Source: Balanoglossus misakiensis (lineage: Eukaryota; Animalia; Hemichordata). Taken from it: DNA of 64,000 nucleotides. A model generated the notes under the pieces. It did not search any database. It saw only the letters and a program-made list of their open reading frames with translations, and was not told where the DNA came from. Made by a program: the position numbers and the translations under genes. The stretch spans positions 10,920,017-10,984,016 of the forward strand of contig CM082592.2 of assembly GCA_040954595.2 (NCBI GenBank), in the 5' to 3' direction. This document shows, one piece after another, positions 32,965-60,888 of this stretch (its first letter is position 1; each line of letters begins with the position of its first letter).

Positions 32965-34135
32965 CTATTTTTCGTTCAGTTTGGTTCTGCAGGACTTGCG
33001 TTGTTTGATGAGAAATATTATGTCCAGTATGACGATGACCGTGACGGTCACAAGAATCACTGTCGTGATCAGCGAAAAGGGCAGATTTCGTTTAACTGCA
33101 TCACTTGATCTTGCTTTCTTGCCCCCGCCTGGGTTCGTTTCTGTAGTGGTTGTTACCATGGTGTCGGTAGATTGTATGGTTGTAGTTATTTCTGGCTTTG
33201 TCGTGAGAGATGTTGTCTTCGTCGACGTCGGCTGAGGAGCGAGCGTGGTCACTGCAGCTGAAAGTAACCATCAGTATGCGTTGTTAGATGGCCACTCTTT
33301 GATTATTATATGTGCATATGGTGAAAAATATTATAAAGAGATTTAATCGATTAATACAGTTTAGTCTTCGCGGTTCGCATGCATATTTTCTTACCTGGAT
33401 ATCTGCAGATGTAGAACGTCTTCACATGACACGGCTGAGTTAACCAACTGTATCCTTCCGCCCTTTTCAGAACCACGCATTCATCATCCGGGATTTCCAC
33501 CCAATCTGTGTATCCCGTCATGTCCACATAGGTGCTGTCAACCCACTTGTAGTTGTCAGCGCCCAAGTCGTACCTCAACCCGAGCCAATAATCTTTGGTT
33601 TGGTCGACTATGGTCAAAAGGAAGTCTTTATCAGCTTGTTTTTTGACCATAGCCACATCACCTCCAGAAGTTTGGCAGAAACTTCTGGCGTCATTGTAAG
33701 TCTCACTCGTTGCTGAAAATACTTCGTATTCGTCACCTTCGTACAAATGATTATCAGCTATTCGAACAGAAAACACGTGATAGAAAAAGAAAAGAAAACC
33801 GTTATTTTATCCTTACCAGAAAAAAATACGCTAATTATTTACATGTATACAAAAAGGGGAAATTATGTTTCCTCTTCCTTTGAAGTTGACTGTAAATGAC
33901 TTTAAAACATAAGGTAACGGTGACAGTAATATTAAATGACGCAGTCAACTGAAAGTTAGGCACTTAACTTGTAGTATTCATATTAATTGCAGGCAAAACA
34001 CGATTATGGCCAATATTTTCACTTTCTAATTCCGAAAGTTGGGTACTCACCTTGTAGAGTTAAAAATTGCAGGCAAAACGTGACAATGGCCAAGATTTTC
34101 ATCTGTCGAATCGGAGGAACACTCGCTGTCTCCAT
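32965..34135 (-). CDS. Type-I membrane C-type lectin domain protein 1 (signal peptide, CTLD, Thr-rich stalk, TM)
   Basis: Exons 34135-34051 (METASVPPIRQMKILAIVTFCLQFLTLQ), 33757-33395 (CTLD: YNDARSFCQTSGGDVA..YWLGL..WVDST..ECVVLK..W.TQPC..FYICRYP) and 33257-32965 (Thr-rich stalk, TM LPFSLITTVILVTVTVIVILDIIFLI, basic tail); all introns phase 1. Confidence 0.85.
33962..34038 (-). pseudogene. Degenerate tandem copy of the lectin-1 signal-peptide exon
   Basis: aattgcaggcaaaacacgattatggccaatattttcac mirrors aattgcaggcaaaacgtgacaatggccaagattttcat in the real exon just upstream. The internal ATG reads GTG and the donor GT reads TT. Confidence 0.65.
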
Positions 34136-35114
34136 CACTTTCCAACATTCACTGTGCACTTAATGTTAACATGTCTGAGTAACATTTGATCAGAATGCAT
34201 AGTACACTTAATAATGCTCACAAAAGGCTTATTTGACTGCTTTAATCATCTCAATACAATCTTTCGTTTTTACACTCGCAAACAGAGACCACCTTTCTTT
34301 TGCTGTTTGTGTGGGCCTTTCACTGCGTCTTATACAAACTCATTAGGACTGCTTTCAAAATACGCTTTGGGTCAGAGTTCACTGCTTCACTACCAAGGCA
34401 ACGTACTTTACAGTGTTAATAAGTTTTTTTCTCCGAATATTTCAAAATGTCCAAGTGAGTGAGGCAGTGTGAAGCTGTCTCGTAACATTGTTATTGATAA
34501 GTAAGTTCTTTATCAGTTCACTCTTCAAACAGGTATGCACTAATATGACACGTGCACGGATGATGTAACCTACGAGGACAGGCCTATTGCATTTTCAAGT
34601 TTACATACAACGGGCTGCAAAGAAAACGCTTATTGTGTACGTGCTCTCTTTTGCTATTGGCATCGGCTCCAGACCAAAATAGGTCAACTATATAAAAATG
34701 TATTTTCACGGCTTCTGTGTGAAAACTATCGATCGCTGCTGTTGAATAGATGAGAACTATACAGCTCTAAAGTATTGATTGCTCCAATTATGTTATCAAT
34801 TCAAAAAAATCTTTAAAAGTACACTTATTGTGGATTGACAGTGATTCAAAATCTATATCATACTTTGCATACGATGGAGTTATTCTTGTATTAGTGCTTG
34901 CGAACGGTATCAAGGGGACTTTGTCGGGGAGTCATTACTTATTAAACATGTTAAACACGCCCGGTCCGAAAGTTTTTTTTAAATGGTTAAATGATCATTC
35001 ACTTCGACTTGTGCAAGTTGAGTTCTTTTTGCGATACGATCCAATGCAGTGCGCATACTTCCTCAACAGCAAGAAAGATACTACGGGTAAACAGTTTTGG
35101 TGTACAGTACGTTG

Positions 35115-37779
35115 TCATGGTATATGACGAGTGGGCACTGTCGATGTCCCTTGGCGCGCTGTGCTGTGCATCTTGAGGTAACTGTCTACCACAGAGAAGA
35201 GGGCCTGGCGATTAGGTGCAACTTTCCCATTATTCGTTTTACCTTGAGTGCGTGCAGGTCTGTTTTTGTCTTGTTTTGCATCCAAATTGGCCTTTCCTGG
35301 TTGGGCAGTATTGGTCACTGATCCACTTTTCTTTGCCATTGCAATGAAGAAGAGCAGGTCGACCACCACGAGAGTGACTGCGATTGCAACAAGTAGGGAA
35401 GGGAAGGCGTATGACGACACTTGCCGAAGCAATTGATCGGATTCCTTGAGAGTTTCTTCGTGTACTGCTGTGGATTCCTCGGGCGTTGTTGTTGGCGCTT
35501 CCGAGGAATTAACTGTGACCGTGCCATTTGTAAGGATAGTTGATGTGACGTTAGAACTGTCAGATACAACGCGTGTAGACACTGGGATGTTCAAATTTCC
35601 AGTTGACGAAGATGGCGACAACTCGGCTGTTGATGATTCAGTTGTAGGCCTTTGTGAGGACGTTACTGCAGTACTGGTCGATGTTGTGGTAAATGTTTTT
35701 GGATTGAGAGTTGTTCTGGGTTCAGTTGTTGGCTTTTGTGACGTTACTGCAGTACTGGTCGATGTTGTGGTAAATGTTTTTGGATTGAGAGTTGTTCTGG
35801 GTTCAGTTGTTGGCTTTTGTGACGTTACTGCAGTACTGGTCGATGTTGTGGTAAATGTTTTTGGATTGAGAGTTGTTCTGGGTTCAGTTGTTGGCTTTTG
35901 TGACGTTACTGCAGTACTGGTCGATGTTGTGGTAAATGTTTTTGGATTGAGAGTTGTTCTGGGTTCAGTTGTTGGCTTTTGTGACGTTACTGCAGTACTG
36001 GTCGATGTTGTGGTAAATGTTTTTGGATTGAGAGTTGTTCTGGGTTCAGTTGTTGGCTTTTGTGACGTTACTGCAGTACTGGTCGATGTTGTGGTAAATG
36101 TTTTTGGATTGAGAGTTGTTCTGGGTTCAGTTGTTGGCTTTTGTGACGTTATTGCAGTACTGGTCGATGTTGTGGTAAATGTTTTTGGATTGAGAGTTGT
36201 TCTGGGTTCAGTTGTTGGCTTTTGTGACGTTACTGCAGTACTGGTCGATGTTGTGGAAAAAGTGCTTGATTTAGGAGTTGTTCCGGATTCAGTTGTATGA
36301 CCGCGTGTCGATCGCGGAGGCTTAGTTGATGTACCATCTGTAAACGTGTCCGAAGTGCTTTGGGAGGGCGTACTTGACTTGATAGAAGACGATTGTTGAA
36401 CAGATGAAACCTCAATCGTTCCTGCCTGTAATGTAACTGTTGGCCCCGTTGACGCAAGTATCGATGACCAAAACCCAGAAGTCCTGGGAACAGCTCCCTG
36501 AAAGCCTGAGTGTGACTGGTCGGGAATCATGGTTCTTGGTAGGGCTGGAAAGGGAACATACAGAATATGGAATCTATAAATGAACTGTTGGCATCTAAGT
36601 CTACTAAAACGAATCAATATGACCAGTATCCAACGCTCAATCAGTCAATCACGATTTTTAAAACGTCAAACAGAATTTATGTAAATGACCTGAATATTTG
36701 CTGATAGGAAACAAAGCAAGACTGTATTCACTTACCGGTTATTTCTGTCGTTGCCAATCCTTGTGTTTGTGTTGTAGATCGGTCAGCAGGTGTTGTCGCT
36801 GTAGTAGTCAGATAACCTTGACGGAAACACAAGAAATAAAAACACGTAGAGTGAATCCTGTCATTACGGACACCTCTCTTGTCAGGACACTTCTCTACAT
36901 GTATTACACATTTTCCCATGGCGTTGGAGAAATTACTTGAGCAAACCTATACATGGTTCGGCATTTGTTAAAATACCGTGTTCCCTAACTATTTGTTGAT
37001 AAAACTTCACTGTACCTTGATATTCGCAAATGAATCCCATATCTTCAAAATCACAACTGCTTCCTGTCCACTGAAAATAGTTGTTGGCGCTAATGTAAAC
37101 GCAGTTGTCACCACTTTGTGGTTCCTGGTTAGCCCAGTACTGGAAGGTGAGGTCTGTCCCGTCGTACCATCTAAATATGTTGTATGATTCGCGATGCAGT
37201 CCAATATAGTATCTATCAGATTTTCCCGCCAATGCATGCTCCAAACAAAGTTGTTGCTGTTGATTTCTTATCGTTGCTAGTTTTCCGCCGTACCACTGAC
37301 ACTGTGATTTCGCTTCCGATAAACTCTCATAGTCTTCGCTTCCATAATAAATCCTGTAGCACACGTGTCCGCATGTAAATTGGCCCGTGTCACACCCTAG
37401 AATGACACAGTGCGTCCTTAACATTTGAGAACATTTAGACTTGGAGGTTCACTCGAACAACACAGCAAACTGTTAATAATATTGTTGTATACCGTGGCAT
37501 ATCCAAGGAGGATTTTAAAAGGTGCCAACCTGACTTGTAAATGAACGTTTGCCTCTGTGTACGAAACAAATCATAGTGTTGTGATAGATAAGATAGCATT
37601 CTTGTCCAGACTGTTCGTTGTGCTCCAACTGAAGGACAAGGATCAAACTTGCCATGGATCACAGACTAAGCTTAGGTTTATTTGACGACGCAATAAACTG
37701 GAATCCTACCTTCAACCAATAATGAAGCAAAAGCCATTGTGATAGAAACTCTCAAAGCTGTTTCTCGGAGTATCTTCAT
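35115..37779 (-). CDS. Type-I membrane C-type lectin domain protein 2 with a long mucin-like repeat stalk
   Basis: Exons 37779-37710 (MKILRETALRVSITMAFASLLVE), 37396-37016 (CTLD: CGHVCY..EAKSQCQWYGGKLA..YYIGL..WYDGT..YWANQEPQSGDNCVYI..WTGSSC..FICEY), 36816-36736 and 36497-35115 (Ser/Thr stalk, TM AFPSLLVAIAVTLVVVDLLFFIAMA, tail). Confidence 0.85.
35659..36255 (-). repeat. Coding minisatellite, 81-bp unit x 7 plus a partial copy (27-aa TSTSTAVTSQKPTTEPRTTLNPKTFTT)
   Basis: The anchor gacgtta recurs at 35659, 35740, 35821, 35902, 35983, 36064, 36145 and 36226. Copies are near-identical; one encodes Ile instead of Val. Confidence 0.97.
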
Positions 37780-38892: not shown

Positions 38893-41800
38893 ATGAAACA
38901 CATCAGAAAGATTTCGCGCTTTGTGATTTTGATAAGTTTGGCTGTCCAATTGGCTGATGGGTTTGATAAAACAGAGTGGGTTCGTACGAGTGCTGCTCAT
39001 GATGCGGGTGAGTGGAAATAAAACTCCGTTTGTTACACTTTTCATATCAAAAGCAGTAAATTGAAGCCCAGTCAAGTTTTGTTTTGGTCAAACATTAAAC
39101 CAAGTGTTGCTGTTCATATCAGAACTGTCGCAATTGAATTTATGAAGAATCGACCACTGAAACGTCACAAACGGTGTGTTCTTCATTATGCAGAAAACAG
39201 CGGTTCTTATCTTGACTGGCCGCGTTTTCATTTTGCCGGGACGTTCTTAGCGGACACACCGACAGGAAACAACTTGGTTAAAAACTACGACACCGAGGCA
39301 TTTGATGAACGACTTCGACAGGAGCCAGACATGATGGGGTTCAACCCTGATGGATCAGGAACCTTTCAGTTGTTAGACTGTCAAGTGACATCAGTCTGCT
39401 ACAGACGAGGTGAATGCATCATTGCGCATGCGGATTCAAGTTCGAATGAAGACGCACTATTAGGAACAACTATCTTGAGTAAGTCTGATAGGTCGGTGAT
39501 TTTTTTTAGCGAACTCAACAAAGAGTGAATAAACTCTCCCATTCAGCCAAACTGCAGTAAGTCCCTTTAATATTAAAAACATTTTATAATGTAGAAGAAA
39601 TTGGCTTTAGGTTCCTTCTTTTCTAGGTAATATTAACCGTTCCCAAGCCAAGATGGCGGACCTGGACCCTGAGTATGAATTAGCATCGACCATTTTTGGA
39701 ATGTCTGTCCATTTACCAGGCGCTTTCTCAGCCAATTTACAAGAAACAGCATTGGCAAATTTATTTCGTAAAATACCCACTGGCAAAAGCAATGATAATG
39801 CGGAAGGGGCCGAATTCTTTTCCTTGCTGACCGATGTGGATTGGCAAGATGAAAAGGCATCGCAGCTTTTGGATGAGTTAAAGCTGTATAGTTCCGCCAG
39901 TACGAATCCAAATGTGCTATCGATAAAATTTAACCTCGATTCTTACGTATCCGATGTCGAATCCGCAAAGTTTCTCACTGGTAGAATCGTCGGAAGTGTT
40001 GGCGTTGCTGGGTCTTCCCTGCCATTGCACGGTCTTCGCAGTCGACAGCTGAAGCCATTAGAATCAGATGATTTTGGAATAGCACATATTGCAGTCTTTG
40101 CAGACAGGGGAAAGATACTGGTTGACCTTGGCAATGCCCTCCAGCATAACACGCAGGGATTCCCAGACCCAGACTTAAACCAAGTCTTACAAGTCGCAGT
40201 TCCATCAAGTCCAGTAACCCAGCAGCCTCTAGGTTGCAAAACTCAAGTTGAAGTCCTAGCACACGTTAACTATACAGGTCACCGGTGGTATGAAACCACT
40301 GCAGGAATCGTCGCCATTCCTGAAACAACTGTTCTCACCCAACAGCAGCTCAGTGATATTTCTAATCGACCAGTGATGATTCGACAGTTGGATAAGGACA
40401 CTCGTGTCTGTCTGGGTGTTGTTCTCTCAGAGAGAAAGGATGGCGTTGCAAGCGGCAGTTTGGGAGACAGCATATTCAGACAAATTCCTGGCGATACATG
40501 GCAATTTTACGCATTCTTGACTGTATTTGGAAGACCCTTAAGCAACGTTTCACTGGAGATTTTCAACCAAAATGGTTCGTCTTCCTGTACCAATGATAGT
40601 CATATACCTGTCACTCAACTCGCTGTTGAACATTCGGGTTGTCAGATTACTGATGATCATGGAATTGCTTCTTTCAATTTCAATGGAAGCAGTCCTGGAA
40701 ATCCACGGAAAATAATCGATGGACAGCTATATCTCTTTGACGTCAAAGTCCACGTCCAAGAAATGTTTACTTCAAAACAGCAAATAGCTGTACTCATGCA
40801 TGATGACTTTCAGGTTTCAAAAGGCGGGCCAACTTGGTATCAGGACATTTACCCTTTATTCAGAATCTACGCCAATCTGTATCCCGGTATGGTCAATGTT
40901 ATAAACATGGCGTCTTACGAAGATGTTGTACGTAAGACAGAACTGATGAAACTGGCCATGTCCCTGCCGAGAACGGACCCAGCATTCATGCCTGTGACAA
41001 GAGACCTTTCCAGACAAAAGCAACAGGTGGTTCTCCAGTGGCTTGACAACCCCCAGCTTGGTGAGGTCCCGCCATTAAGTCTGACAGAGCTTAAAAATCA
41101 CTTGCAACTGGCGATGGAACTTGAACTTGCTACAATTCCACCTTATCTGACCGCACTGTTATCCATCAAGAAGGGGGACAATTTGGAAGTTGCCAACACT
41201 CTCCGCCGTATCGCTATAGAAGAAATGCTTCACATGGCTTTGGTGGCTAACATCCTGAGAAGCGTATGCGGCAATCCGATTCTTGATGACATCCGGGTCA
41301 TTCCGAAGTACCCATCGAAAATGCCAGGGGGTGTTCATCCCCATTTGACTCTATCCCTCCGGCGACTGAGCAAAAGTCATATAGAGGATGTATTCTTGAA
41401 AATAGAGGAACCAGACAGCACCCTTCCTATTACATTACGTCAAACTGTTCTGCAAAGCATGAAAGACAATTCCAGATCCAAGTTGTCCTTGGGGGACCAC
41501 TATGATACAATTGGGAAATTCTACTTTGAGAAAATCTGGAAATCACTGAGTCACCATGCGGCCATTGACAAGACCTTGTTCAGATGTGCAAACAAAAGCA
41601 CCCAGATTACTGGGGATGACTGGTATAGTCACGTGGCTGACAAGCCATTTCCGGTGTATAATATAGAAGATGCAAGAAGAGCCATTCAGATGATCACAGA
41701 GGAAGGAGAAGGGAGTTCTCCCACCAGACCATTCGACTCTGGCGGTAATCTTTCTCATTACTTCAGATTTCTGGAGATTGTGATGGGCAACAGACTGGTA

Positions 41801-42253
41801 AATACCGTCAAAGCAAATAATACAATTGACGCCTGTGATGTTAAATATTTTGACAGATATACACCTAAGTTCTGTGGGTATGATGAGAAAACATGCCACT
41901 TTATGTACGTGCTTGAGAGGTGTGAAGTACCTTATCAATTTACAGGGGAGAGGGTTCCATTTTATTCTGATGGGATCTGGCCTATTATTGATGATCCAAC
42001 TACTGACAGTTATCCCACGGGTTCAAAGGTGAAACGCTTGTCTGACCGTTTCAACACCGAATACTCCAACTTGCTGCGATGCATCCACTGTGCTTTCAAC
42101 GGCAACCCCAGAACGATGAAGGCGTGCATGTCAGTTATGGCAAAACTCGAATTGCTGGGGCGCCAGTTAGTGAAGACGCCGATCCACCATGATGGGGATC
42201 CAAACACAGGTCCGAACGGCGCACCAACATTTGAATTCACTTCGCTTTCCTAA
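38893..42253 (+). CDS. Secreted VioB/RebD/StaD-like protein (iminophenyl-pyruvate dimer / chromopyrrolic acid synthase family) with C-terminal ferritin-like domain, 1008 aa, 3 exons
   Basis: Exon 1 38893-39007 (MKHIRKISRFVILISLAVQLADG-FDKTEWVRTSAAHDA, donor G|gtgagt), exon 2 39194-39478 (cag|...A|gtaagt), exon 3 39627-42253; both introns phase 1; 3027 nt open. Motifs collinear with VioB as recalled: SYLDWPRFHFAG..TGNN, AKMADLDP, GRIVGSVG, YANLYPGM, FMPVTRDLSRQK, LQLAMELELATIPPYLTALLSI, IAIEEMLHMALVANIL, AIQMITEEGEG, SHYFRF, GAPTFEF. Confidence 0.88.
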
Positions 42254-42636: not shown

Positions 42637-45131
42637 CTAGAGGGCGTCCTTACAAGGTGCTATATTAATCTTGAGGACTCCCAACCGGTGCAGCTCCAGG
42701 AGTGCCTTGAACTCGCCACTGAAATCATGAACGCGGCTCATGGCCAGCGTGTCGTAGTAGTGGTACTTCAGTTCTTGTCCATCCAGGCCTTTGGCAAATG
42801 GCCAAAATCCGTACAAGTCCACTTGATCGCAATTCGCCAGAACAGTGGTCGCCAGATAGAAGCCTGCAAAATTAACGGGACACATGGTGTCATTGTTTTG
42901 TAAAATAGTGAACTAAGTAATGATTTAAGGTCTAAAGCTGTTTTTAAGGAATGGTTAATGAGACAAATTCAAGCTGTACTCAGTGTACACACACTAGGAC
43001 TAGGAAATAATTAAAGTCATATCACCTGAACTAAGACGTTTGTCATGTCCCCGGGTCTTCCAAAATTCCTTCACCGAATTGAAATGAGAAGGATGTATGA
43101 TATACATGTTGGCATGTCCTTTCAGAACCTTTGCTCCTCTGAGGGAAACCGGAATAAGCATTGGCGTCGAATGAACCAACACTAGAATGTTTTTATATCC
43201 TTTCATTTCGGCGATAAATTTCTGTATATCCTCTCTACGATGAAGGTTATTAAAGCTCCTAAAGAAAAAAGAAAATACATTTTGAGAATAACTACAACGC
43301 ATATCGATGAATAGTATTTAAATTCCCGCCAGCGTATAGTCCTCTTTCATGACCCCCATGTGACCTTTACATCCTGGCATTTTGTCGGTATGATTTCGCC
43401 ATTTTGAATATAAACTCTGGTATAGTTGACCATAATAAGATTATGGAATCTGAACATTCCAAATCATCATAGAACATAAAGCCGTAGCCAAAACGAACAA
43501 AAAACATGCAAGCCCTACTTTTGGAACTGGGATTTGTTGAACGTTGTGAGCGTTGTTTTATTTCCAACGTCGTTTGAAAATCCCCCAATGGTTGGTGCAT
43601 TAAATCTGTAATTGCGACAAAAGCATTCATTTTATTCTTTGAAACTAAAAAGTAACCATAATTTCGGTAGTTTCTCAGAAATTTAATTTTAACAACACTC
43701 AGCTAGTACGCGCAATATGACAAAGTTGGAGCAAAGAATAAGATTCGTCAAACATGGTTCAGTGGACATGCAAATACCTAATAACACTCTCTGCCGAATC
43801 AATCTGCCGTCCACAGCTACTATTGAGAAGGATACCACTACTACCAACAACGCTGCATGTTTTGTATTTTCTATCAACAAAGAACTGCGCCTGGAAAAGG
43901 TTTGAAAATAGTGGGAAACAACTTGAAGGTCAAGTAAAAACACAGAATTAATTTCAAGTGGCAAATAAAAGTGAAATTTCATATACCATGTTTGCTACCG
44001 AGAGAGGGGGACTGAGGGATGGAAAGGGATTGGGAGAGAGGGGGAAGGGAATCGGGAGAATTAGGCAGGGCAAGGGAGGGTGAGAGAGAATGAGAGAGAG
44101 AGGTGGAGATAGGGTGATTTACCTCGGGTAACAACCGATGTACCGAATATTCGATTTTGAATCGTCGGTCGCCTAGTGTTCCATTCACAACCTGTGAAAT
44201 GTTGGTGTTTTCCTTTGTAAGAATAAACATTCGTCTTGTGTCCACAATATCCGCAAGTTTTTGTCTGTCAAAAATGCAAATCACATAAAATTAAACATTT
44301 CTATCTACATCAATGTTAACAGAAACCGCACAGAAACCAGGATTGAAAGTAGTATTTCATTTTTACAACTGCCTCGGATTTATGATCACAGCTACCTTAT
44401 ATTATTCCTGTTTTCCTCGCTTAGTTTCCATGGTAAAGACAACTGATGTATTATCTCTTCAGCCGATACAGTGCCATTTCCTTGAGGAGTAAGCTCCGTT
44501 CCATTTACCGCCGTTTTGTTGCTTGTGTGTTCTGTCATCGATACTGTCCCTGTGGAATTGGACGAGCTTGCAGAAATCCACGTGCCTTGAATATGTGTCC
44601 TGCAAAGAATGGCAATGAATAGCTTTGGAGATCATTTGAGTCATGTCCTTGCCGATATAGTATTTCTAATAATTCTTGTTGTCGATGGTGCAAAACCGAA
44701 ACAGTGGCCTGATTAGTCGTGAAAATAACAGTGCTGTATTAGTTTAAACATGTATAACACAGTTGGAACATACCTGTCCAAGTCATAATTTTGATATAGT
44801 TATGTCAAATTCCAATATACCAGTATATATTACTTGTGACTGCTCAGAATCCTGTGGTATTACTTAGATGGTGCAGAAATGAGCACCGTTTCGTTTTAGA
44901 CACATAATCAATATCACATAGTTTATACTCTTTAGTCTCACGTAGGACTTACCGTACTGAAAGCGTTGCATCATGTGTGACCTTCGGGCCTCCGAAAGAG
45001 AGATCTCTGAAGTGACCCCAAGTAAGAGCAAGGTATAGGATGGACAGAGTGAGCACAAGACTGGCTAATATCTTCATCTGGACAAACAAACATCGTTTGC
45101 TACTGTAAGGGTTTCGTGTACAGCTTGCCAT
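42637..45131 (-). CDS. ST8SIA: Alpha-2,8-sialyltransferase-like protein (GT29, ST8Sia family)
   Basis: Exons 45131-44953 (type II anchor [18 protein letters not shown]), 44599-44396, 44264-44123, 43890-43778, 43605-43519, 43258-43026, 42863-42637. Sialylmotif [36 protein letters not shown]; motif S LSSGFYL..C.QV.LYGFWPF; motif III HYYD; motif VS HDFSGE; near-terminal Cys typical of ST8Sia. Confidence 0.9.
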
Positions 45132-46327: not shown

Positions 46328-47787
46328 TCAGAGTACTTGCAGCGTATAGATACAAGCACGGCAACAATGGTCGCTGTGGACGTTGTAGAGGTAGTTTTCC
46401 TTGAAGCATGTGTTTATCAGTTCCATTTTCTTAGATTCGGTTAACTTCCTGAAGGTTTCGCCTTCGACTAGATTCAAGTACTTCTCAGAAGCAACCAGTA
46501 TGATGAAGCCTCCTGTTAACACAAATGATTCATATTGTTATGTGTTTGCAGCGACAACATAGTTGGGGCAGCATGGTGTCGAAATTCTAAACATTTAAAC
46601 CAAGGAAAATAGGCGGGATATGTTTTATTATCCTAGCAAAAATTTCTCAGGCACTCTTGCCACTATGGGGCAAAACCAATTTTTTCTACGCGTACATTTG
46701 TGCTGACTATTGATAAATGTAAGCATTCCCACCTGGCTTCACAATTCTAGTCCATTCCTGCAGAACATCATCGTGTAAATGTCCGTCACCAACAAAACTG
46801 CCAACTGTAGTAATGGCATCGTAGGAGTCTGGGGAGGGAGGGGGTAGAGAGAGATACACAGAGATAGAACGGAGAGAGAGAAAAGAGAAAAAGAGGGCGT
46901 GAGAGAGAGAGGGGGAGGGAGAGAGAGGGAAAGAGAGAAAGGAGAGAAGTATTGCCATCCACGACGTCAGTAACACATGGCCATAAGCTGTATGGACAGG
47001 CAAGATCAGTTTTTATTAATTGAATTGGCGAATGACTAGTAATGATGCTTTATCACAGAAATATGAATCATGAGTGTCGATAATTGAAAAAGTTAAACAA
47101 TACCTCTCTCGATTCCTTCTATCGGGTCTGCCCCCAAAACAGCAGTGATAAGATTTTTATAAATGCCCTTCTCTCCAGCAACTTGGAGAAGACCCTCTGA
47201 CATATCCACACCATCGAGGTTATCGTAGCCTGCATCTCTGAGCTATAGGTGGATAAAAAGGGTTATTGTCTTTAGTCCGTATCCGAATGATGTCTAACAC
47301 AGTAGCACACTGATTGACAGGTGACTGACATCTATTATACAGTCAAAGTTATATCGAAATGACAGCCAGTAGCGGAAATGGGAGAGGGGACCAGACATAC
47401 CTCCTCGCCAACTAATCCAGTACCACAGGCACAATCAAGGATTCGCGCGTGTTTATTCTCCATAACTTTAGAAAGTCCTTCCGCGGCGAATTTTGGTGCA
47501 TTGTACGTATCTCGCGACAGCTGTATTTTATATAAAGAAACACAGAACACGCATATGTGATTAGTAAAATTAAACAAGCGACCTAGCACCCGATGGTGGT
47601 GGTGGTGGTGGGGGGGGGGGTGGTGGTTGTGGTGGTGGTAAAGGTCATCATTTGAAAATTCATTTTCACAGATTACCGTATCATATCTGCCGGCGATTTT
47701 ATTGTACAATTCTTTGACTTGCTGCGTTGTAACTTTGGGAGCATATAGTTGCTCTAGTATCTCAAGAGTCTCTTCATACATTAACAT
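46328..47787 (-). CDS. METTL27: Class I SAM-dependent methyltransferase, METTL27/WBSCR27-like, copy 1
   Basis: Exons 47787-47677, 47520-47401, 47242-47104, 46828-46733, 46512-46328. Motif I RILDCACGTGLVG, GVDMSEGLL, DSYDAI, RIVKPGG; N-terminal ELYNKIAGRYD. Confidence 0.82.
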
Positions 47788-48768
47788 CTGTAAATAGAGA
47801 TTGAGTGGCATGTCAAAAGTTGTTGCTTAAAATACAAGCGCAGCATCCGGCAGACAACTTTGGTCACTGAATAGACACTTGATAAAAAAACTAAATGTTA
47901 TTCTTTTAAAGGCTGCTTCCCTGACTATCACTGATAATTTTTAGAAGTACAAGTTGAATACGTCCACAGAATGTCTGCAGTTTTGCCAACATTACCACTG
48001 ACAGTCTATGCCTTTCAAAAATGCACATTGATCGACCTATATCAGTGACGTGCATAGGGGTTCCGGGTCATCTTGAAGCTTGTTTTCTTCTTATCTTGCA
48101 CAAGCGAACCTACAGTAGGCTATGCTAGTAAATATTCTGTATGTAATAGAAGTAATTCACTGTATATCATGCTATCACGTTTTAGAGAGTCTTTAAGTTC
48201 AGAGAATCTGGCGATCGTGGTAGTTGGTAGAATTGCTACCAGTGGTTTGACCTTTGAATCAAGCGCTGCAGGTCAGCTTTGAATCCAGGGCTGATCATCT
48301 GTAGACCAGCCGTTTGCTTTCTGTTGATGTTTGACCTTGAAATCCAATGACAAACAGCCATCTGTTTGACCATGTTGGGTTTGACCTTTAAACTTACCAC
48401 AGCACATATCCGTTGGCACAAATTGGGCCCTAGTCTGCTGCGCTTATAGCATGCAACGCCTCCCTTGCATTATGCAAATCATGGACTTTTAGGGGCGGAC
48501 CAGTCCATATCTGGGAGAGGTTTTTTGAAAAACAACAGTCTTGCCAGTAATCACTTTACTTTTTAGAGCTGACTTTAATAATAGTTAAGAAGGTGTGCAT
48601 GATGAGACATGCATTTAAGGTTTACTTGGTTGTTGTTTTTTGTGAGTGCCGGTATGTATAACATAGCACTAGACTTTTTCTGCGTCGTGTTAAATGGTTA
48701 ATTTCAAATATTAGCGTCGTAACTGAAAGTGTCGAAGCCGGAAATAATAATTGTATGGACCAATGCGT

Positions 48769-50771
48769 TCAGAGTACTTGAAACGTATAGATACAAGCAC
48801 GGCCACAATAGTCTCTGTCAAGGTTATAGACATAGTCTTCCTTGAAGCATGTGTTTATCAGTTCCATTTTCTTAGATTCAATTAACTTCTTGAAGGTTTC
48901 GCCTTCCACTAGATTCATGTACTTCTCAAAAACAACCAGTATGATGTAACCTCCTGTAAACACAAAGGATTCATATCATGTGTTAGCCACAAGAACACAG
49001 TTGGAGCAGTAGGGAAATAGGCGTTTTTTCTGACTTATCTACATATTTCAGGCACTCAACGAGTACAACCAAGACAATATGTACAATATGTACTGATTTT
49101 CATTAAAGTAAGCATTCACACCTGGCTTCACAATTCTAGTCCATTCCTGCAGAACATCATCGTGTAATTGTCCTTCGCCACCAAAACTTCCAGAGCAAGT
49201 AATGGCATCGTAGGAGTCTTAGAGAGAGAGCAAAAAAACTATTGTCATCCACGATGTCAGTAACACATGGCCATAAGGCTGCATTCACAAACACCTCTGG
49301 AGGGGGGGGCAGGAGAATTGAGGGGGGGGATTTGAAAAAATTGAGGGTATGTAAGGGGGGGGATTTGAAATAATTTAGGGACTGAAAGGGGGGGACTTGA
49401 AAACTTTGACGACTAAATATTTATTTTGAGTCCACAAAAATGCAGTTTCGCGCCCTTTATTTTACAAATTTTCTAATGTGGGAGGGGGACACCCCCTTCC
49501 ACACCCACCCCCTCCATTCATCAACACCTTTCAATCATTGACTGCTTTATCTAGTGTCCCAGGTCAGGGGACTTGCCCCCACCCCATGATAACTCTGAGC
49601 GTCGACGGTTAAATTTGTCCTCCCCAACATACCGGTAGTTGAGTTAATTTGCTTTTGCTGGGTTCATTAAAATGCAGCTTTGAGCTCTGTATTTTATAAA
49701 ATTTTCTTACGTGGGAGGGGGACACCCCCTCCCAAACCCACCCCCTTCAATTCTCGGTTTACAATGTCTCCCAACACAGAATACAAATACTTAAAAAATA
49801 AAAACAATGTTCAGTTTTAATACCCACTGATGAGGGGAAACATCAGTTTCAAATTCTTTTCATGGGAACGCTGTTTATCTTTTTTACAAGATAGATGTGT
49901 TTTGCTCTGTGAAAGAAAATGGGGGGGGGATTTCAAAATTTTGGCAGTACGGAAGGGGGGGATTTGAAAATATTTCGGGTTGTGTGGGGGGGCATGTGAA
50001 AATTAGCGGTAAAAAAAATTGAATTCTCCCGCCCCCCCCCCCTCCAGAGGTGTTTGTGAATGCAGCCTAAGCTGTATAGACAGGCAAGAATCAGGTCCGA
50101 TTAGTACAAACTGGTAAGGATGCTTTATCACAGAAGTATGAATCATGAATGTCGATAATTTAAGGAATTGAAATACCTCTCTCGATTCCTTCTATCGGGT
50201 CTGCCCCCAAAACAGCAGTGATAAGATTTTTATAAATGCCCTTCTCTCCAGCAACTTGGAGAAGACCCTCTGACATATCCACACCATCGAGATTATCGTA
50301 GCCTGCATCTCTGAGCTGAAGGTGAATAAAAAGCGTTATTGTCTTTTGTCCATATCCGAATGATGTCTACCACACTACTAGGTGCTAGTATAGACTTACC
50401 TCTTTACCAATTAATCCAGTACCACATGCACAGTCAAGGATTCGCGCGTGTTTATTGTGCACCACTTTAGAAAGTGCTTCCGTGGTAAATTTTGGCCCAT
50501 TGTACGTATCCCGCACAAGCTGCAAGAAGCACAAGACAAAATGTTCATGTATATGTGATGTGGTAGAAAAATAAAACAAGGGCCTTAGCAGCCGATACAG
50601 TTCTAAAGTGATACTTTGCACTATAAACAAGATAACTGCTTCAGAATTTAAGGTCATTCTGATTACCGTATCATATCTGTCAGCGATTTTATTGTACAAT
50701 TCTTTGACTTGCTGCGTAGTAACTTCGGGAGCAGACAGTTGCCCTAGTAACTCAAGAGTCTCTTGATCCAT
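48769..50771 (-). CDS. METTL27: Class I SAM-dependent methyltransferase, METTL27/WBSCR27-like, copy 2 (tandem paralogue)
   Basis: Exons 50771-50667, 50519-50400, 50315-50177, 49217-49122, 48953-48769. Same structure as copy 1, motif RILDCACGTGLIG; exon 3 is nearly identical to copy 1. Confidence 0.82.
49277..50067. mobile_element. 791-bp non-autonomous DNA transposon (PIF/Harbinger, Tourist-type MITE)
   Basis: Perfect TIR of over 30 bp, ggctgcattcacaaacacctctggagggggggg...ccccccctccagaggtgtttgtgaatgcagcc. TAA target-site duplication at 49274-49276 and 50068-50070. The paralogous intron (about 46971-46993) shows the empty site taacacatggccaTAAgctgtat. Confidence 0.93.
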
Positions 50772-51793
50772 ATTCACCCACGGTCACTCCACACACCGTG
50801 ATTCACCTGTCAGTATAAAAAGATCGAATGGCATGTCAAACCATGGACGTCCATGGTTAAATTAATTGCCACCAGTGGTTTGAGTTTGACCACGGTCAGG
50901 TGACCGTGGTTTGACCTTCAAATCAAATCAAGCGCTGGTGGTCAGCTGCTAACGTTTGAGCTTTGAATCGAGGGCTGATCACCTGTAGACCAGCCATCTG
51001 CTATCTGTTGGTGTTTGACCTTGGAATCCAATGACAAACAGCCATCTGTTTTGACCTTGTATGGTTTGGCTATGAACTTACCACAGCACAAATCCGTTGG
51101 CACAAATTGTGTCCCAGTCTCAGGCTGCAAAACATGCAAAAGAGTCCATTGAAATGCAAATCACATGCTTTTAGGGCTGGACCAGAAAATATCTGGCAGA
51201 GGGGCTGGAGGATTGTTGACAAAACACTGTTGCCAGTTAGCTGTGAAAAAGATGTCTTGGCACTAGAATAAAGTGTTGCGGCCCGTTTCACCAGTCAACT
51301 GCACCTGTCGCATGCATGTTACGTCACAGTCCGGTTACATCTTCACTCATTTTTGTTGATACTGACTCAGAAGTGCCTTTAAATAGCTGTTGGTGGGTAT
51401 ACCCATATAGACACGAGTCTACTGTCTATGTTATACCATAGACCCTGGAGACATATATACCTGAGACTGAGAGTCAGACCATTCATGGTCAGTTAGCAAT
51501 CATTACGTAAGCAGAATGTTTTGTGTGTATTGATGTTTGTCGAGGCACAGTCCTGCCAACCACAGTCCAAACCAGGGACTGTGATTTAGGTTTTATTGGT
51601 CTTGAGATATCGCTAAATGGTACACGCTCGTGATCTGATGTTGACATTAGTCAGTAAACACACGTTTCACTTCTTCAAATATGATTTCTTTTATTGACCA
51701 ATTCGTAAAAAGGGCGTGTTGCCGGTCTGTGGTCTTCTGAAAAAGGCCTATTTGTTGCGCAAAATTCTTCCAGTCTGTCTCATTTAACGCACC

Positions 51794-53280
51794 ATGGGTT
51801 GCTGTAATATACAAAAATCTGACTTTGGACTCCGTTACCATGACAATTCCGTCTTTGCAAATTCTCAGGTAAGCATGATAGTATTAACTTTACATTGGCA
51901 ACAGACTGTCTCAATTATTGGCTATCTAGTATCTATCCCCGCCATTGAAAGACACCTGCATTCCATGATACAAACTAACTGCCCACATAAAGGTTACGGT
52001 AGGCTATACTGTAAGCATTTCTATGACCAGTGGTGATAATTATTATGGACATATTTCTCTGAATGTGGGCCATGATATGCAACAATTTCCTCCAAAGTTC
52101 ACTGAAGCTGTTGCATAATAGTTTTCAAACACTGTACTGTGTTGACAATCCTCCTAATCCAGTGAGAGTAAATTTGACGTAGCATAAGTTGCACCAAGAT
52201 TCTTTCGGCAGCTTTAAGAGCATGACGATTGCATAGCAACGCATTGTCGCCGCCATCTTTACTGATTCGACAAGAATCATGCATTGCGCACCCGTTTCTT
52301 TTCTCTTCCAGTGGAAATTCATACCGCCATTGCTGTTTCTATTATACCGTGTACTGTTGGCATTATACTTCGTTGGATGGTGCTGTTATACCATGACAGC
52401 CTCCATCCTTAGCAGTGGTGGGCAATATTTCCTTTATTTGACCAACTGGGGGTTCATCACTGTGACCCTTTACCTCTTAACAGCCTCGTTCTCAACGTGC
52501 TATTTTCACATCCGCACGAGGTTTAACTCTGACCTAGGTAAGTACTGAGCAAGCGCACATTAATTTTCTAGGCGCAAGAATAAAATTACTCAAACTGGTC
52601 GAATAAATTCCGATGTGATGTCGGTAACGTTACTAGTTATTTCGTATATATACAGTATTCACATACGAGTAATAATTTTGTCATTTTCAGAACGCTTATC
52701 GGAATATGATCAACATTCTACTCCTTGGTACTTCAGGTTGTCATGGTTACTCTATAACCTTGCCGTCGTGGTTGCACCAGTCATAACACTGGTATACTGG
52801 GTGGCTCTATATGAAGGCCACGGATTGCAACTGGTTGATTTCCACATACACGCTGTAAACTTCATCGCCATGGCCCTGGAGGCCATTATAGCCGCCATGC
52901 CAGTTCGTTATGTTCACGTGATCTATCCCGTGATCCTTGGCGTCTGTTACACCGTTCACAGTCTGATTTACTGGGGGATCACCGGCAATGCCATCTATTC
53001 CATCTTAGATTACACAGAAGACCCCGCTCTGGCCGCTGGCACCTCATTTGGATGTCTTGCTCTCATCATCTTCTTTCAATTACTACTTTGGGGAGTGTTC
53101 CATGCAAAGCAAAAGCTAAGCCCATTCTCTTTAGCATCGACCAATAAGATTCACGAAGCCGTTGTTTCCAAGGACACGCCCCAATGTGATGGAGTCGATA
53201 ATGTTACTTTCACATTGGAAAAGTCTACGCAAGTGGATTTAGAAGACGAACACGATGCTAACTATAATCAAATCATATAG
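51794..53280 (+). CDS. rost: Protein rolling stone-like multi-pass membrane protein
   Basis: Exons 51794-51868 (MGCCNIQKSDFGLRYHDNSVFANSQ), 52312-52537, 52691-53280. Motifs YRVLLALYF, FLYLTNWG, PWYFRLSWLLYNLA, ITLVYW, HIHAVN, PVRYVHVIYP, IYSILDY. Confidence 0.85.
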
Positions 53281-53517: not shown

Positions 53518-54337
53518 GTGCCGGGACAACACACTCGCTGATGGCCTCAATTTAACCCCGGCAGTCAACGAACGCACAATACGTGGGGCGTCGTTGTATG
53601 TATACAACAAAGCTGTAGCTCCATGCTGTATAATATGTGTAAAATGCCTCGTTGCGTTTTACAAGGCTTCCATGGGAACTCGTGATGAGGTAAGGTATTC
53701 TTAGCTGTCGAAGGCAGGACAACTGAATAAAATACCGCACAAAACTTGACCCAGGAGTATCCTGGGAATATGATGTGACCTCGGGGGTGTCACACTCCAT
53801 TTTAAGAATAACCTTGCTTTGTATGTACTAAAGCACAATACAAAGGGTCTAGTTCTGATTCTGTCAAAGTGTATAGTAGCTTTAAGTAGTATTACTGTGG
53901 TGTTTGTAATTTCGTTCAGTTAAACACTGGAATAGCGATTCGAGCGTTCATGGTGAATAGCATTAACCAAGAACGCATTGTGACGTCTTCTGCAAATTTA
54001 TGGTGTTGACCTATACATGTGAATATACGGTCACATGTGGAGTCAAGACTTGTATTTAGCACGCTGACGAGACCCCATTACTATTGTCGTTCAGGCCTGG
54101 TTCACTACCACTGCAGTTGCAGCCTGAAGGATAAAAAATGTGCGTGACAATTATCAGCTTGTGTATCACTGATGCCACACATCAAAAACTTCCATGGCAT
54201 TTTTTCAATCGTTTGCCCTTTTATTGAGATTTTTGTTTGTTTAACTTTTTTCTACAGAAAAATAAATCAGATGTCACTATGTAGTTGGGATAACATCTAA
54301 AAGACTACGTTCAGCGAACTCAACACCATCTGTCAGA

Positions 54338-55524
54338 ATGTGTTCAGCGCGTGTGTGGTACGCCCTCACCGTCACCTTCTTGGTCATCGTTTCCCTGGTG
54401 TTTGTTACCACGGGCATCTTCCTGACGATGTGCATGAGAACCTACTCTTTCAACCAGTGTGTGTTTGCTCGAGATTCGGGCGACATGGCCATGATTTACG
54501 AAGTACTGTCGTCTTTGGCAGTGGTGATAGAAATGATATTGGTGTTTTGCACGCTGCGTCTTTATGGAGTTACATTGCATCTTTCTTTTGGACACGAGCT
54601 TCGTAGTCTGTATAACGCCTTGGCGTTTTCTTGGGCCAGAAATCGTTTCTGTATACTTATCAGCGTGGTCATTTATCTGGCTATATTGGTCGCACAATAT
54701 TCCACTAGTCTTCACAAATGGGAAGCGTTAGATAACTTAACATTGATGCTGCAGGTGGTTTTCCTGTTCCTTCTACTGGTGGTTACCAACGAAAATGGCC
54801 CTTTGGTACTGGTGTACCCTACCGTTCGGGGAACGCCAACTTTGAAAGTTAAAGTACTTTCCTTTGTCCTCTTCACTTACCTGAGTTTAACTGACCTCTT
54901 TCAATTTGCGAGGGTCACGATTCTTCAAACGACATCTCACTGGAACAGTGGTGGAGGTGATGACGACAATGATTCCCTGAATGTAGTGACGTTACTCGGA
55001 CTTACTGCACACATAGCACTCAGGTAAAGTGTAAAAAATACTGAAAGACCAAATAAACAGACAATCCCTGTAGTCTCAATTATGTTTTCACACACGGAGC
55101 TACTGACGCAAAATAGTTTGTTCATTTTTTTAATTATAACAATCAAATTGGCCTTAATGGTAGAATGATTCTAATGATTCAGTACTAAAAAAGTTGAGCC
55201 TTCTTGTCGGTTATATTTGATATAGATATCGTTCTCTCTTCCTCACTCAGAGTGGATTACGCACAATTCTTTTGGGAAATGGCGTGTCTGGCTTTCAAGA
55301 AAGAGTTGCCACTCTACGGCGGCAGAAACACGGTTTTGCGGGATATTACCGACGACTGGGAACCAGAAATGCAGGACGTTGGCAGCAACGGTGACTATGA
55401 TGCAAACCGTGGCGCCGAAGTGTTCAGGAATGTCCCTGACGCACAGGAAGAAACCGAACCACTGCTAGATGTTGACGAGGAAGGTCTACGCACAGAGTAT
55501 GGTTCTGGTGCAAGTGTTCGATAA
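54338..55524 (+). CDS. Uncharacterised multi-pass (about 6 TM) membrane protein with an acidic cytosolic tail
   Basis: Exons 54338-55023 (cag|gtaaag) and 55251-55524 (cag|agtg) join in frame. Several long hydrophobic segments; tail contains EETEPLL. Confidence 0.75.
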
Positions 55525-57454: not shown

Positions 57455-59841
57455 ATGATGTCTCGTATACCGCAGTTCCGTGTTATCAGCGCTACATTTC
57501 TGGAATTTACAATTCTTGGACTTTTATGTCAAATATTGTCTGCCCGAGCAGGTAGGAACATTTAACCTTTATAGCATCGAAACGAAACATGTCACAGATA
57601 TGAAGGGTGAAGGTTCCTATAGTTTTTTTAACATTTCCACGCACTTTCCTAGCATGCAACATAGCATTATCAATCTGTGCAACATCGCTCACATTGTTTA
57701 GACTAATAGGAACATATATGAGGAAGACAACAAGAATGTCAACAACAATAACAACAGTAACAACAACTATTGTCTTTTCAGCTTGTTCGGTCAATCAGCA
57801 TGCATACGAAGGCGATTGTTATGAAGTCTTCATCGTCAACAAGAAAAAATACAACGAAGCCAGGGACGAATGCAAACTGGCCAGTCCCGGCGGGGATTTC
57901 CCAATCTTGCAGAAAGCCGCAGATCACGACTTCCTTGTGTCCATCATCGATCTCTCGAAGGACTATTGGATCGGATTTCGGGATGCGGACGATGATGGTA
58001 TCTACACGTGGGTGGACAACACGACGCTGGTGGAGACCAACTACACAAACTGGAAGAGCGAAGGGGAAAGCGGATCCAACGAATGTGCAGTCATGAAAAG
58101 ATCTGAAAATTTCAGATGGGATGCCGTCAGCTGTGGATCAAGTTTTCATTTCATCTGCAGATTTCCAGGTACATTTTTTATTTCGGAAATTACATGGGAT
58201 TCTTTGTTTCGCTGTCATTTTCTCCAAATAAGTGTTCAATCATTCCCTCGGGGTTTTAATAGGGGAAATAAAAACGCCACCCTCACTGATATCACCAGTG
58301 AATGTCAAAATACATTAGGATAGTGTACTGTTACGGAAATTTGGTACAGTGATTTTGATGCCGTGGATTGTGATTCTTTTTCAAATTTCTCCCGGAAATT
58401 TGTCCAACGGGAAGCAACAAAATTAGGTCGTGAGTTTGAACCTTACTGTGTGCATCGATGCGGTAGGTGCCGAGTTCGAAGCTCATTCAATACAAGTTTA
58501 CTTCATTTGCGTTTTAATTCAGCTTTGAACTAAGGGATATATGTCCATAACTACTGCGTCAAATTGGTGGAACGTGCCTGCAATTCACAGCAGGGGGTTC
58601 GTACATACACAACATTATAATGACACAACATTCCACCCACGGGGCATATTCAGCTCACACCTGGTGAAATTAGCTGTAATCCTGTTTCTTGTGAAGTTCC
58701 AATACCCATATTGGCAAATACGTTGATCCATTGTTCCGATAGGATACAAATTCGAAAGGTGCCCTCCGCATAGAAATGGGCTTCATTTTTTTCTTTAATA
58801 TGTGTTCGTTTTATTAGCCTGAATTATTGCGCCAGCTTTCGTTCAATACTTCATCGACTGCATATTCAAATGTAAACTCAAGATTGACAAGCAATTTCCT
58901 TCGTAATAATCTTGGTGTTGTTGCTCCGCGAAGGGTTATGCACGCACAAAGCCGGAAATGACAGCGAATTAACAAAAACACAGGATGCATGTAATTTTGA
59001 CGATAAAGTGTAATATTTCATAGGTTCCATGCTTTTCTATGGGACGAAGTGTATTCAGGACTACATGTTGAATGAATGTAGTGACATATTGAAACGTTTT
59101 GTTCTGCAAAAGGATTGCTCGAACACACCTAGGACTATTGCGAAGACACGTGACAAGCGGAGTTGCAAGCTATAATTGGCATCATCATTACCCATAACAT
59201 TTTCAGAATTTCATTTCTGACGATTTATGATAGATCGTCGTCGGCCATTGAAGCTGACGTCATTAAAGTCATCGACAGAATAGTTTCCGAAATGATTGTA
59301 GAGTTCCACGCAAGTTCCATTTTCAGACCACACTGTTTTCTTTATCATATTAGGCGTTACAACCCCAGCACCTGCGACCACATCATCTCCCACAACACCG
59401 CAGAAAATAACGACGTCTTTCACAACTTTACCGGACACAACGCCATTACCCACGACTCTACTAGTTACAACGCCCTCACCAACGACACCACGTGACACAT
59501 CCCCATCACCAACTACGCAGCCAGATACAACAACGTCCTCGCCAGTAACTCAACAAGAAACAGATTTGACATCACACAATCTCCAAGAAAGCACAACAGT
59601 TGATCCAGCCACGACTCAATCTACCACCACTCTACCAGTCACAACAAAATCGCCTGTCGTAGTTAGACACAAGGGCGGGCTGTCGGAAATTCAACGCCAG
59701 GCCCCATTTTTGACGATTACCACAATTCTCGCTATCATTGTGGCCGTCATTGTCATTTTGGACCTCCTCTATCTTTATGGATGCCATCTAAAATTTCAAT
59801 CGCGACCAAAGGAGCAAGATTTCAGTCTTAAACGCTTCTAA
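57455..59841 (+). CDS. Type-I membrane C-type lectin domain protein 3
   Basis: Exons 57455-57551 (MMSRIPQFRVISATFLEFTILGLLCQILSARA), 57782-58168 (CTLD: YEGDCY..EARDECK..YWIGF..WVDNT..NECAVM..WDAVSC..FICRFP), 59354-59841 (Thr-rich stalk, TM APFLTITTILAIIVAVIVILDLLYLY). Confidence 0.87.
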
Positions 59842-60888
59842 AAAATTACCCCCCTTTTAAACTCTCGAATGTCTATCAATATACCATTTTTCTAACTTCG
59901 CGAGAGTCTCTAAATATCCCTTTCGGGAGTTTTCTAATATCTTTGAGGTTTGCTCCAGACACCAGTAGACTGACTAATTGACTACATCGAATTTCCCCAT
60001 GTGTTTTCGTCCTCGGTCTTTCCTTCAAGTCTTTGTTGCCGTTCGCGTGTGGGTGGATGTATAGGAAAATGTTAAAAGCTTTAGATATTCTGACCAGTAT
60101 AGGCCTACAATCGGAAAAGTCTATATTTTTGTTTTAAAGCCTTGTTCGTTATTTCTACCAGACGGCGGGTGAGTTTTATGGTTAACAAAGAATGTTATTA
60201 AACGAGTCAGACGTCTGGAGCAGTTTTTAAATAGGTTGATTTTCCTGAGAATGTGTCAATATTAAACACCTGTAAATTTTACTATAATTTGTTTGTGATT
60301 GTAATGCTATGTATGTAAATTCGTTCCGATCGCATTGCTGTATAAGCCGTAAGAGTGCTTTTCAATCGTTAAACACATCAATATTTTCGGCTGTCGCTTC
60401 CGGTTCGCTTTTTTCATCACCAGTAGTACATTTTAAGAAAATTTCAAACGTAAATGGTTTTAATTAGCAATGATGCAAAGTACATTAACACCGCCGTTCG
60501 CGACACTTGTCAAAGTCAATTGTCAATGTGGTGTTCTGCAGCAAACGACATGAAACTGCAGATAAGGAGTAAATCATTCAGGAAATCGCGTTCGTCATTC
60601 TATCTCGTTGCTACAATAACCACCAGCTTTTATCATGTCGAAGGCATTAAAAAACACTATGTAGTTTCCATGACAATATCGAAAATCGACAACATGTTTG
60701 TGCTTTCTATGTGGAAGGACATTAATTGGAAAAAAGTCAATAACATTATGCTTGAACATGTGACAAACTGATTTGGTCGACAAACAACTGATCAGAAAGC
60801 AGAAAATAGGACTTGGTTAGATTTCAGCAGACGATCACAGTGTCACGTCCGGCGGTAGTCAAGTCCGGCGGTGATTTCTACAGCAAAG

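Follow-up and report, generated by a model that had tools for sequence, protein, structure and literature searches.

A VioB-like gene with introns in the acorn worm Balanoglossus misakiensis belongs to a predicted secreted enzyme family of likely bacterial origin

Introduction

Heme is reported for VioB and the chromopyrrolic acid (CPA) synthases (PMC9705886, PMC10851217) and catalase activity for VioB (PMC9705886). A second described relative, CC_0557 of Caulobacter (PF12902; entry 3hl1 of the Protein Data Bank, PDB), is a stand-alone domain of 317 amino acids (aa). We describe here a VioB-like gene in a 64,000-nucleotide stretch of the genome of the acorn worm Balanoglossus misakiensis (assembly GCA_040954595.2, contig CM082592.2, positions 10,920,017 to 10,984,016 of the forward strand), which we call the window and to which the coordinates of the gene refer. 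Its product resembles VioB, RebD, StaD, RedD and Tjp2 in length (~1000 aa), in domain order, in the series of motifs leading up to the ferritin-like domain and in the invariant putative di-metal and linker residues. It differs from VioB and the CPA synthases in its low identity (23-24%), its separate clade, a signal-peptide-like exon, introns and cysteine pairs, and in having neither the VioB-specific His and Cys residues nor a linked tryptophan oxidase. The fold of its C-terminal domain is like that of CC_0557, which differs in being without the N-terminal module. The original prediction, made from the letters of the DNA, had taken the gene for a bacterial VioB/RebD/StaD-family gene domesticated in an animal.

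Arylpyruvate dimers are the presumed precursors of the lamellarin-type pyrroles found in ascidians and sponges, and 3,4-diarylpyrrole and bisindole alkaloids of this kind are usually ascribed to symbionts. Acorn worms produce halogenated phenols, indoles and pyrroles, and L-amino acid oxidases are secreted by animals. Microbe-like animal genes, some of secondary metabolism, were reported in the hemichordate genome paper (Simakov et al., 2015; PMC4729200). These genes, like the VioB-like family, have readily alignable microbial relatives; they are deuterostome-only, whereas the VioB-like family extends to a brachiopod, a jellyfish and a sponge. Two of its supplementary spreadsheets contained no match to the family. 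Our literature search, the scope of which excluded the supplementary gene list of PMC4729200, returned no paper on the animal VioB-like family, and no description of the function of its bacterial sister clade was found in the literature covered. Some proteins of Branchiostoma and Clavelina already bear the domain name in UniRef, so the homology as such is on record in databases.

Results

The acorn worm gene is intact and contains two introns

The gene consists of three exons that join to 3027 nt and encode 1008 aa, with one terminal stop and no internal stop. Its features and nearest neighbours are as follows.

Exon 1, 38893..39007, + strand: start codon, signal-peptide-like stretch at about residues 1-23, short N-terminal extension
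Intron 1, 39008..39193, + strand: 186 nt, GT-AG (GTGAGT..TGCAG), phase 1
Exon 2, 39194..39478, + strand: first part of the N-terminal beta domain, which is conserved and VioB-like, with the LDxPRxHFxG motif
Intron 2, 39479..39626, + strand: 148 nt, GT-AG (GTAAGT..pyrimidine tract..TAG), phase 1
Exon 3, 39627..42253, + strand: what remains of the beta-rich module at the N-terminus, followed by the helical linker, the ferritin-like domain and the stop
Conserved helical linker, 40835..41044, + strand: residues 537-606, with near-invariant W537, Y548, M555, M588-P589 and R592
PF12902 ferritin-like domain, 41102..41782, + strand: putative di-metal ligands E633, E666, H669, E727, E828 and H844
C-type lectin exon, 36933..37448, - strand: neighbour outside the gene, PF00059, E 8.5e-15
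Last exon of a family-29 sialyltransferase, 42646..42864, - strand: neighbour outside the gene, PF00777, E 2.2e-14, tail to tail with it

The reading frame and its two phase-1 introns had been predicted exactly, with every junction coordinate in agreement, and the signal-peptide-like nature of exon 1 had been overlooked. The introns are poorer in GC (0.37 and 0.34) than the exons (0.43-0.47), and without splicing the exon 1 reading frame meets a stop after 42 codons. The spliced protein is 56% identical to the Ptychodera gene model P0001 and aligns ungapped over both junctions. Exon 1 matches residues 9-39 of P0001 and exon 2 matches residues 42-130 (66% identity for the exon 2 product), so that the split codon and both junctions are in register with an independent Ptychodera flava model. 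A second candidate start codon lies within intron 1 and shares the frame of exon 2; it was discarded, since other acorn-worm models contain a match to exon 1.

Both animal neighbours had been recognised in the original prediction, which had given the sialyltransferase as ST8Sia and had also judged bacterial contamination unlikely. Contamination, a chimeric assembly or a pseudogene can practically be set aside, given the canonical introns, the intact frame, the GC around the gene, which is continuous with the window, and the orthologs of other acorn worms, which sit on contigs of 24-39 Mb. The protein was moreover placed inside the Ptychodera group with a support of 97-98 in two trees (all supports given here are Shimodaira-Hasegawa (SH)-like or SH approximate likelihood-ratio test (SH-aLRT) values from quick searches). 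The gene is an intact, intron-containing animal gene.

The protein is homologous to VioB over its full length and belongs to a sister clade

The C-terminal PF12902 domain expected by the original prediction was detected with 183.9 bits (gathering threshold 22.3; E 5e-54), and all eight of the motifs it had named are present in order over the full length. True VioB carries seven of the eight, its DxDP reading DNNP. The VioB equivalog model TIGR04492 gave 15 bits for the 880-aa exon 3 frame against a cut-off of 1250; true VioB genes, which were taken from vioABC loci, exceeded the cut-off in 5 of 201 genomes and scored 1779-1908 bits. Comparison of the spliced protein with VioB by BLASTP also weighed against a close kinship, returning one piece of 37 bits at 23% identity and another of 32 bits, as against 485 bits over 970 columns for a Chitinophaga protein. 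Alignment of a profile of 79 relatives with VioB using hhalign spanned 782 columns from the first residue (E 1.1e-33, 24% identity). The BLASTP scores and the profile alignment together indicate that the protein belongs to the VioB superfamily over its full length, though to a large sister clade within it. Bacterial members of this clade are 31-34% identical to the animal protein over the full length (E 1e-160) and have the motifs DLDP, IDGQ, TIPPYL and MPVTRDLS in common with it.

In three trees the clade of VioB and CPA synthase rows (20, 6 or 5) excluded the animal protein with a support of 100, and the branch separating that clade measured ~1.9-3.5 changes per site. A TIGR04492 search of 351 actinomycete genomes found neither StaD nor RebD, and in the comparisons their place was taken by Tjp2 and by proteins that bear the name chromopyrrolic acid synthase. 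As judged from these alignments and trees, the animal protein is homologous to VioB end to end, yet is not VioB/RebD/StaD proper. The predicted family assignment therefore holds as far as full-length homology goes and fails for membership itself. The fallback in the same prediction, an uncharacterised sister clade, proved correct, the protein grouping with bacterial VioB-like proteins to the exclusion of VioB. Bacterial sister proteins (for example those of Chitinophaga, 888-926 aa, and the split pairs of Flavobacterium, Azospirillum and Mycetohabitans) have the same invariant residues as the animal protein, but they have no signal peptide, are fused or split, and occur beside ebo genes, in P450-aminotransferase operons or in neither context.

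A ferritin-like domain with a conserved Glu/His pattern

The AlphaFold model of the Ptychodera homolog is confident (predicted local distance difference test, pLDDT, 87; predicted template-modelling score, pTM, 0.82) and has a beta-rich module at the N-terminus, which a helical linker joins to a ferritin-like bundle. The modelled C-domain matched 3hl1 with a Z of 27.2 (root-mean-square deviation 2.3 over 254 residues) and Dps, bacterioferritin and Mn-catalase with a Z of 9.7-11.4. Sequence searches of the PDB returned 3hl1 and bacterioferritins only, and a search with the VioB sequence gave nothing significant and no VioB structure. Fold searches with the N-terminal module brought up nothing more specific than beta-sandwiches and small barrels of a generic kind (TM-score relative to the query no higher than 0.17), and a bacterial stand-alone N module (pLDDT 94) reached a best Z of 5.0 among 48161 PDB chains. 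Residues 1-220 are weakly like avidin, dirigent and pericyclase barrels, a likeness that was not counted as evidence.

E633, E666, H669, E727, E828 and H844 are conserved in 167-169 of 171 aligned proteins, including all 20 VioB/CPA synthase rows, and H669 and H844 are the sole near-universal histidines of this alignment. The Glu/His pattern fits a putative di-metal centre of the kind suggested by the modelled fold. Within the linker, Y548 is conserved in 164 of the 171 rows, M555 and M588 in 170 and R592 in all, and the conserved linker residues are a candidate cofactor or substrate site.

Animal proteins carry a predicted secretion signal

A hydrophobic N-terminus was found in 20 of 23 animal rows and in none of 26 bacterial rows by a crude hydropathy test, which is not a trained signal-peptide predictor. 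The N-terminal extension encoded by exon 1 is absent from the bacterial relatives. A leader of this kind is missing from VioB-type enzymes, so that secretion and an extracellular site of action are predicted for the animal protein. C107/C113 and C952/C967, among others, are conserved in the eumetazoan group and rare among bacteria, and the signal-peptide-like exon and the cysteine pairs are, in the aligned sequences, what is new in animals. Tunicate copies (Ciona) are fused to TSP1 domains, and one Branchiostoma model to LDLa.

The family is spread from sponges to chordates

We looked up 30 of the best 150 of 2709 representatives. Named full-length homologs came from hemichordates (Ptychodera, three; Glandiceps; Saccoglossus, four), chordates (Branchiostoma, several paralogs; Ciona; Styela; Clavelina), the brachiopod Lingula, the jellyfish Sanderia and the sponge Corticium (three). 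A broad vertical distribution in eukaryotes had been named in the original prediction as speaking against a transfer; among the representatives looked up, in which other eukaryotes are partly sampled, all named eukaryotic full-length matches were animals. No vertebrate, arthropod, mollusc or echinoderm was present among the named rows, which are a sample and not proof of absence. A search with the all-animal alignment returned 25 relatives of its first row only and did not extend the named distribution. Two more eukaryote-looking groups were detected, one of which joins Corticium. The other (ENA/Logan), which we infer to be sponge, is rich in Cys and sequons and has several paralogs on one 1.28-Mb contig.

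Fifteen of 80 metagenome loci had a GC below 0.50, and two loci, L110 and L145, cover the second junction in multi-exon genes. Both contain a phase-1 GT-AG intron at the exact position of intron 2, with a conserved Gly four residues ahead of it and the AK of the AKxxDLD motif seven residues behind it. In L145 a phase-1 acceptor also precedes the first conserved motif, six codons upstream relative to intron 1 in a poorly alignable stretch. These two proteins group with that of the jellyfish with a support of 95 in an unrooted 73-row tree and 91 in an LG+C20 tree; if they are cnidarian, the gene was certainly acquired before cnidarians and bilaterians parted. Degraded reverse-transcriptase-like fragments were noted on the minus strand within an intron of this cnidarian-like homolog (L145:6883-8226). 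Seven cnidarian-like contigs gave ratios of nonsynonymous to synonymous substitution rates (dN/dS) of 0.08-0.34 in 21 of 21 pairs.

In the LG+C20 tree (44 rows picked from 79, with VioB as outgroup), all 20 animal-labelled rows formed one clade with an SH-aLRT of 99, the root falling among the bacteria without a resolved position. A maximum-likelihood tree had been proposed as a check on whether animal copies nest in bacteria; the single animal clade was recovered, and the nesting is left to the root, with bacteria on both sides. The unrooted tree separated 36 bacteria from 37 animal-labelled rows at 98, with bilaterians also at 98. Weighing against a single acquisition, the very long VioB branch roots among animals in a FastTree tree of 171 rows (support 0.78/0.65), animals nest in bacteria in a C-domain tree of 118 rows in which the ENA clade lies outside the other animals in a polytomy, and 10 of the 20 animal-labelled rows of the LG+C20 tree carry no species name. 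Several independent transfers, or old vertical inheritance with losses, would suit these two trees, neither of which has a single animal clade, as well as the patchy distribution and an evidence base drawn from the best 150 representatives. Such histories are nonetheless unlikely in view of the single clade under the mixture model, the unrooted split, the shared intron position and the restriction of named eukaryotic full-length matches to animals. A single acquisition at or before the sponge-eumetazoan split, followed by many losses, is the probable course of events, and a bacterial origin of the animal gene, once and near the origin of animals, is likely. The transfer envisaged originally thus stands in its likely bacterial source and gained introns, and not as an event special to one animal. 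Two eukaryotic transcriptome proteins (P0096 and P0098), in which a LodA oxidase is fused to PF12902, lie far from the animal family in the C-domain tree.

Bacterial relatives occur in ebo clusters and beside P450 and aminotransferase genes

The two domains are fused in 25 of 84 bacterial loci and split in 27, the other 32 being C-domain only or fragments. Eleven of the 52 two-domain loci, fused or split and from four phyla, lie within or next to ebo clusters (L002, L003, L016, L017, L022, L024, L031, L032, L053, L057 and L072), a number that includes near-copies (four Flavobacterium, two Streptomyces and two Undibacterium-like); 41 of the 52 have no ebo cluster within 8 kb. For comparison, core ebo genes are present in 4,405 of 124,295 genomes according to the accessible part of a preprint on thallusin (10.64898/2026.05.21.724671), which describes an iron-dependent oxidative ring opening without an assigned enzyme, found no conserved ring-cleavage gene and makes no mention there of the VioB-like family. 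The VioB-like genes in ebo clusters are a candidate for this oxidative step.

In three actinomycete loci (L023:6494-12562, L027:6409-12645 and L028:6148-12682) the VioB-like gene stands between a P450 and a 715-aa pyridoxal-phosphate (PLP) aminotransferase, which in L027 carries a methyltransferase domain. By analogy, this arrangement may resemble the oxidase-synthase-P450 core of indolocarbazole loci (oxidase-staD-staP), with the aminotransferase supplying an arylpyruvate, and the three loci are a candidate pathway to an undescribed aryl-dimer natural product. In Mycetohabitans (L003:1225-4286), a LodA/GoxA-type oxidase and an annotated tryptophan 7-halogenase lie ~3.5 kb upstream of the two split genes. 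One bacterial contig (L173:4890-13017) carries both forms of the gene, a fused copy standing tail to tail with a split one, near alkaline-phosphatase-like and TIM-barrel open reading frames (ORFs) resembling EboF and EboE.

Other genes of the window

The window also contains a smoothelin-like gene with many exons (PF12510; 2099-25151, +), a rolling-stone gene (PF21534) followed by the frame of a multi-pass membrane protein with no Pfam match (52237-53280 and 54266-55524, +), and several genes for C-type lectins that have a transmembrane segment and mucin stalks rich in Thr/Ser (32965-37448, -; 57604-62687, +), one of which has a 27-aa tandem repeat at ~35700-36300. At least two tandem small S-adenosylmethionine (SAM)-methyltransferase-like genes (46707-50783, -; weak Pfam matches only) are found 4-8 kb from the VioB-like gene. 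A single-sequence search, an approach that can miss distant oxidases, turned up no VioA-like oxidase in the 64-kb window; animal genes need not cluster.

Discussion

We see an even chance that the animal protein is a secreted di-metal oxidase which acts outside the cell and couples small aromatic molecules. In favour of this are the profile alignment with VioB, the conserved Glu/His and linker residues, the modelled fold, the hydrophobic N-terminus with the TSP1 and LDLa fusions, and the occurrence of bacterial relatives in small-molecule clusters (ebo clusters and P450-aminotransferase loci). The added exon 1 would route the protein into the secretory pathway, where the animal-specific cysteine pairs and the sequons would be used. 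The C-terminal four-helix bundle would bind two metal ions (E633, E666, H669, E828, H844, E727) and activate O2 or H2O2, while the linker (Y548, M555, M588, R592) would act with the beta module of the N-terminus to keep two aromatic substrates in place and to direct their radical C-C coupling, akin to that of VioB with the indolepyruvate imine. The substrate would most likely be an arylpyruvate or a phenol that originates from an aromatic amino acid and is provided by an enzyme whose gene lies elsewhere. The resulting compound would serve in defence or as a pigment, in mucus or tunic. It is rather doubtful that the product is specifically a bisindole or diarylpyrrole alkaloid. An equally low probability applies to the proposal that animals have, since their origin, owned a secreted VioB-type C-C coupling enzyme which, with a di-metal site instead of or beside heme, makes the lamellarin-, ningalin- and arcyriaflavin-type alkaloids of sponges, ascidians and acorn worms.

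Several observations weigh against coupling of the VioB kind. A single-sequence search found no VioA-like oxidase among the 2750 ORFs of the 84 bacterial loci, and the ebo link points to hydroxyquinoline over indole chemistry. The stand-alone C-domain adjoins GMC oxidases in 23 of 32 C-only loci and PF12902 is also fused to LodA, an association that fits peroxide handling. The VioB-specific H54, H89, H123, H194, H774, H889 and C539 are absent from the animal protein, in columns that lie partly in poorly aligned stretches; 79 of 231 columns invariant in the VioB clade are kept, and the heme site may be missing. An animal chromopyrrolic-acid synthase, that is, a heme enzyme acting on an L-Trp-derived imine, would accord with the full-length homology and the order of the motifs, and Tyr/Met candidates for heme ligands are present. 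Heme binding is, however, not assured in the animal protein, since the VioB-specific histidines are absent; the sister clade likewise lacks histidines that do not vary within the VioB clade. With its position outside the VioB/CPA clade across a long branch, and no tryptophan oxidase found in the window or the 84 loci, such an identity is quite improbable.

The enzyme may instead oxidise catechol- or hydroxyquinoline-type rings, by cleavage or cross-linking, rather than couple pyruvate imines. It would then provide the missing oxidative step beside the ebo genes in bacteria and act as a matrix-hardening or phenol-processing oxidase in animals, and the TSP1 fusion of tunicates suggests matrix anchoring. 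The 11 ebo-associated loci and the ring opening of the thallusin preprint argue for this; the loci distant from ebo genes, the near-copies among the 11, and the accessible part of the preprint, with neither a conserved ring-cleavage gene nor this family, argue against it and make it somewhat unlikely. A secreted catalase, peroxidase or ferroxidase that handles iron or H2O2 on body surfaces and makes no biosynthetic product would be consistent with the likeness of the fold to Dps, bacterioferritin and Mn-catalase, with the catalase activity reported for VioB (PMC9705886), and with the H2O2-producing GMC and LodA oxidases that accompany the lone domain. It leaves unexplained the 600-residue N-terminal module, always fused or encoded by an adjoining gene, and the invariant linker, both of which it has in common with VioB, and is unlikely. 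We thus favour a secreted di-metal oxidase that couples aromatic small molecules.

The acorn worm gene represents an unstudied enzyme family that marine animals ranging from sponges to chordates have retained and often enlarged, and whose bacterial origin is likely. The residues conserved throughout the VioB superfamily are those of the putative di-metal site and the Met/Tyr/Arg linker, not the VioB histidines, a pattern that bears on the mechanism of VioB, RebD and StaD, for none of which a structure was found in the PDB. For the long-standing question of whether marine invertebrates are themselves the makers of bisindole and bis-aryl pyrrole alkaloids, the animal family supplies a concrete candidate that lends itself to expression.

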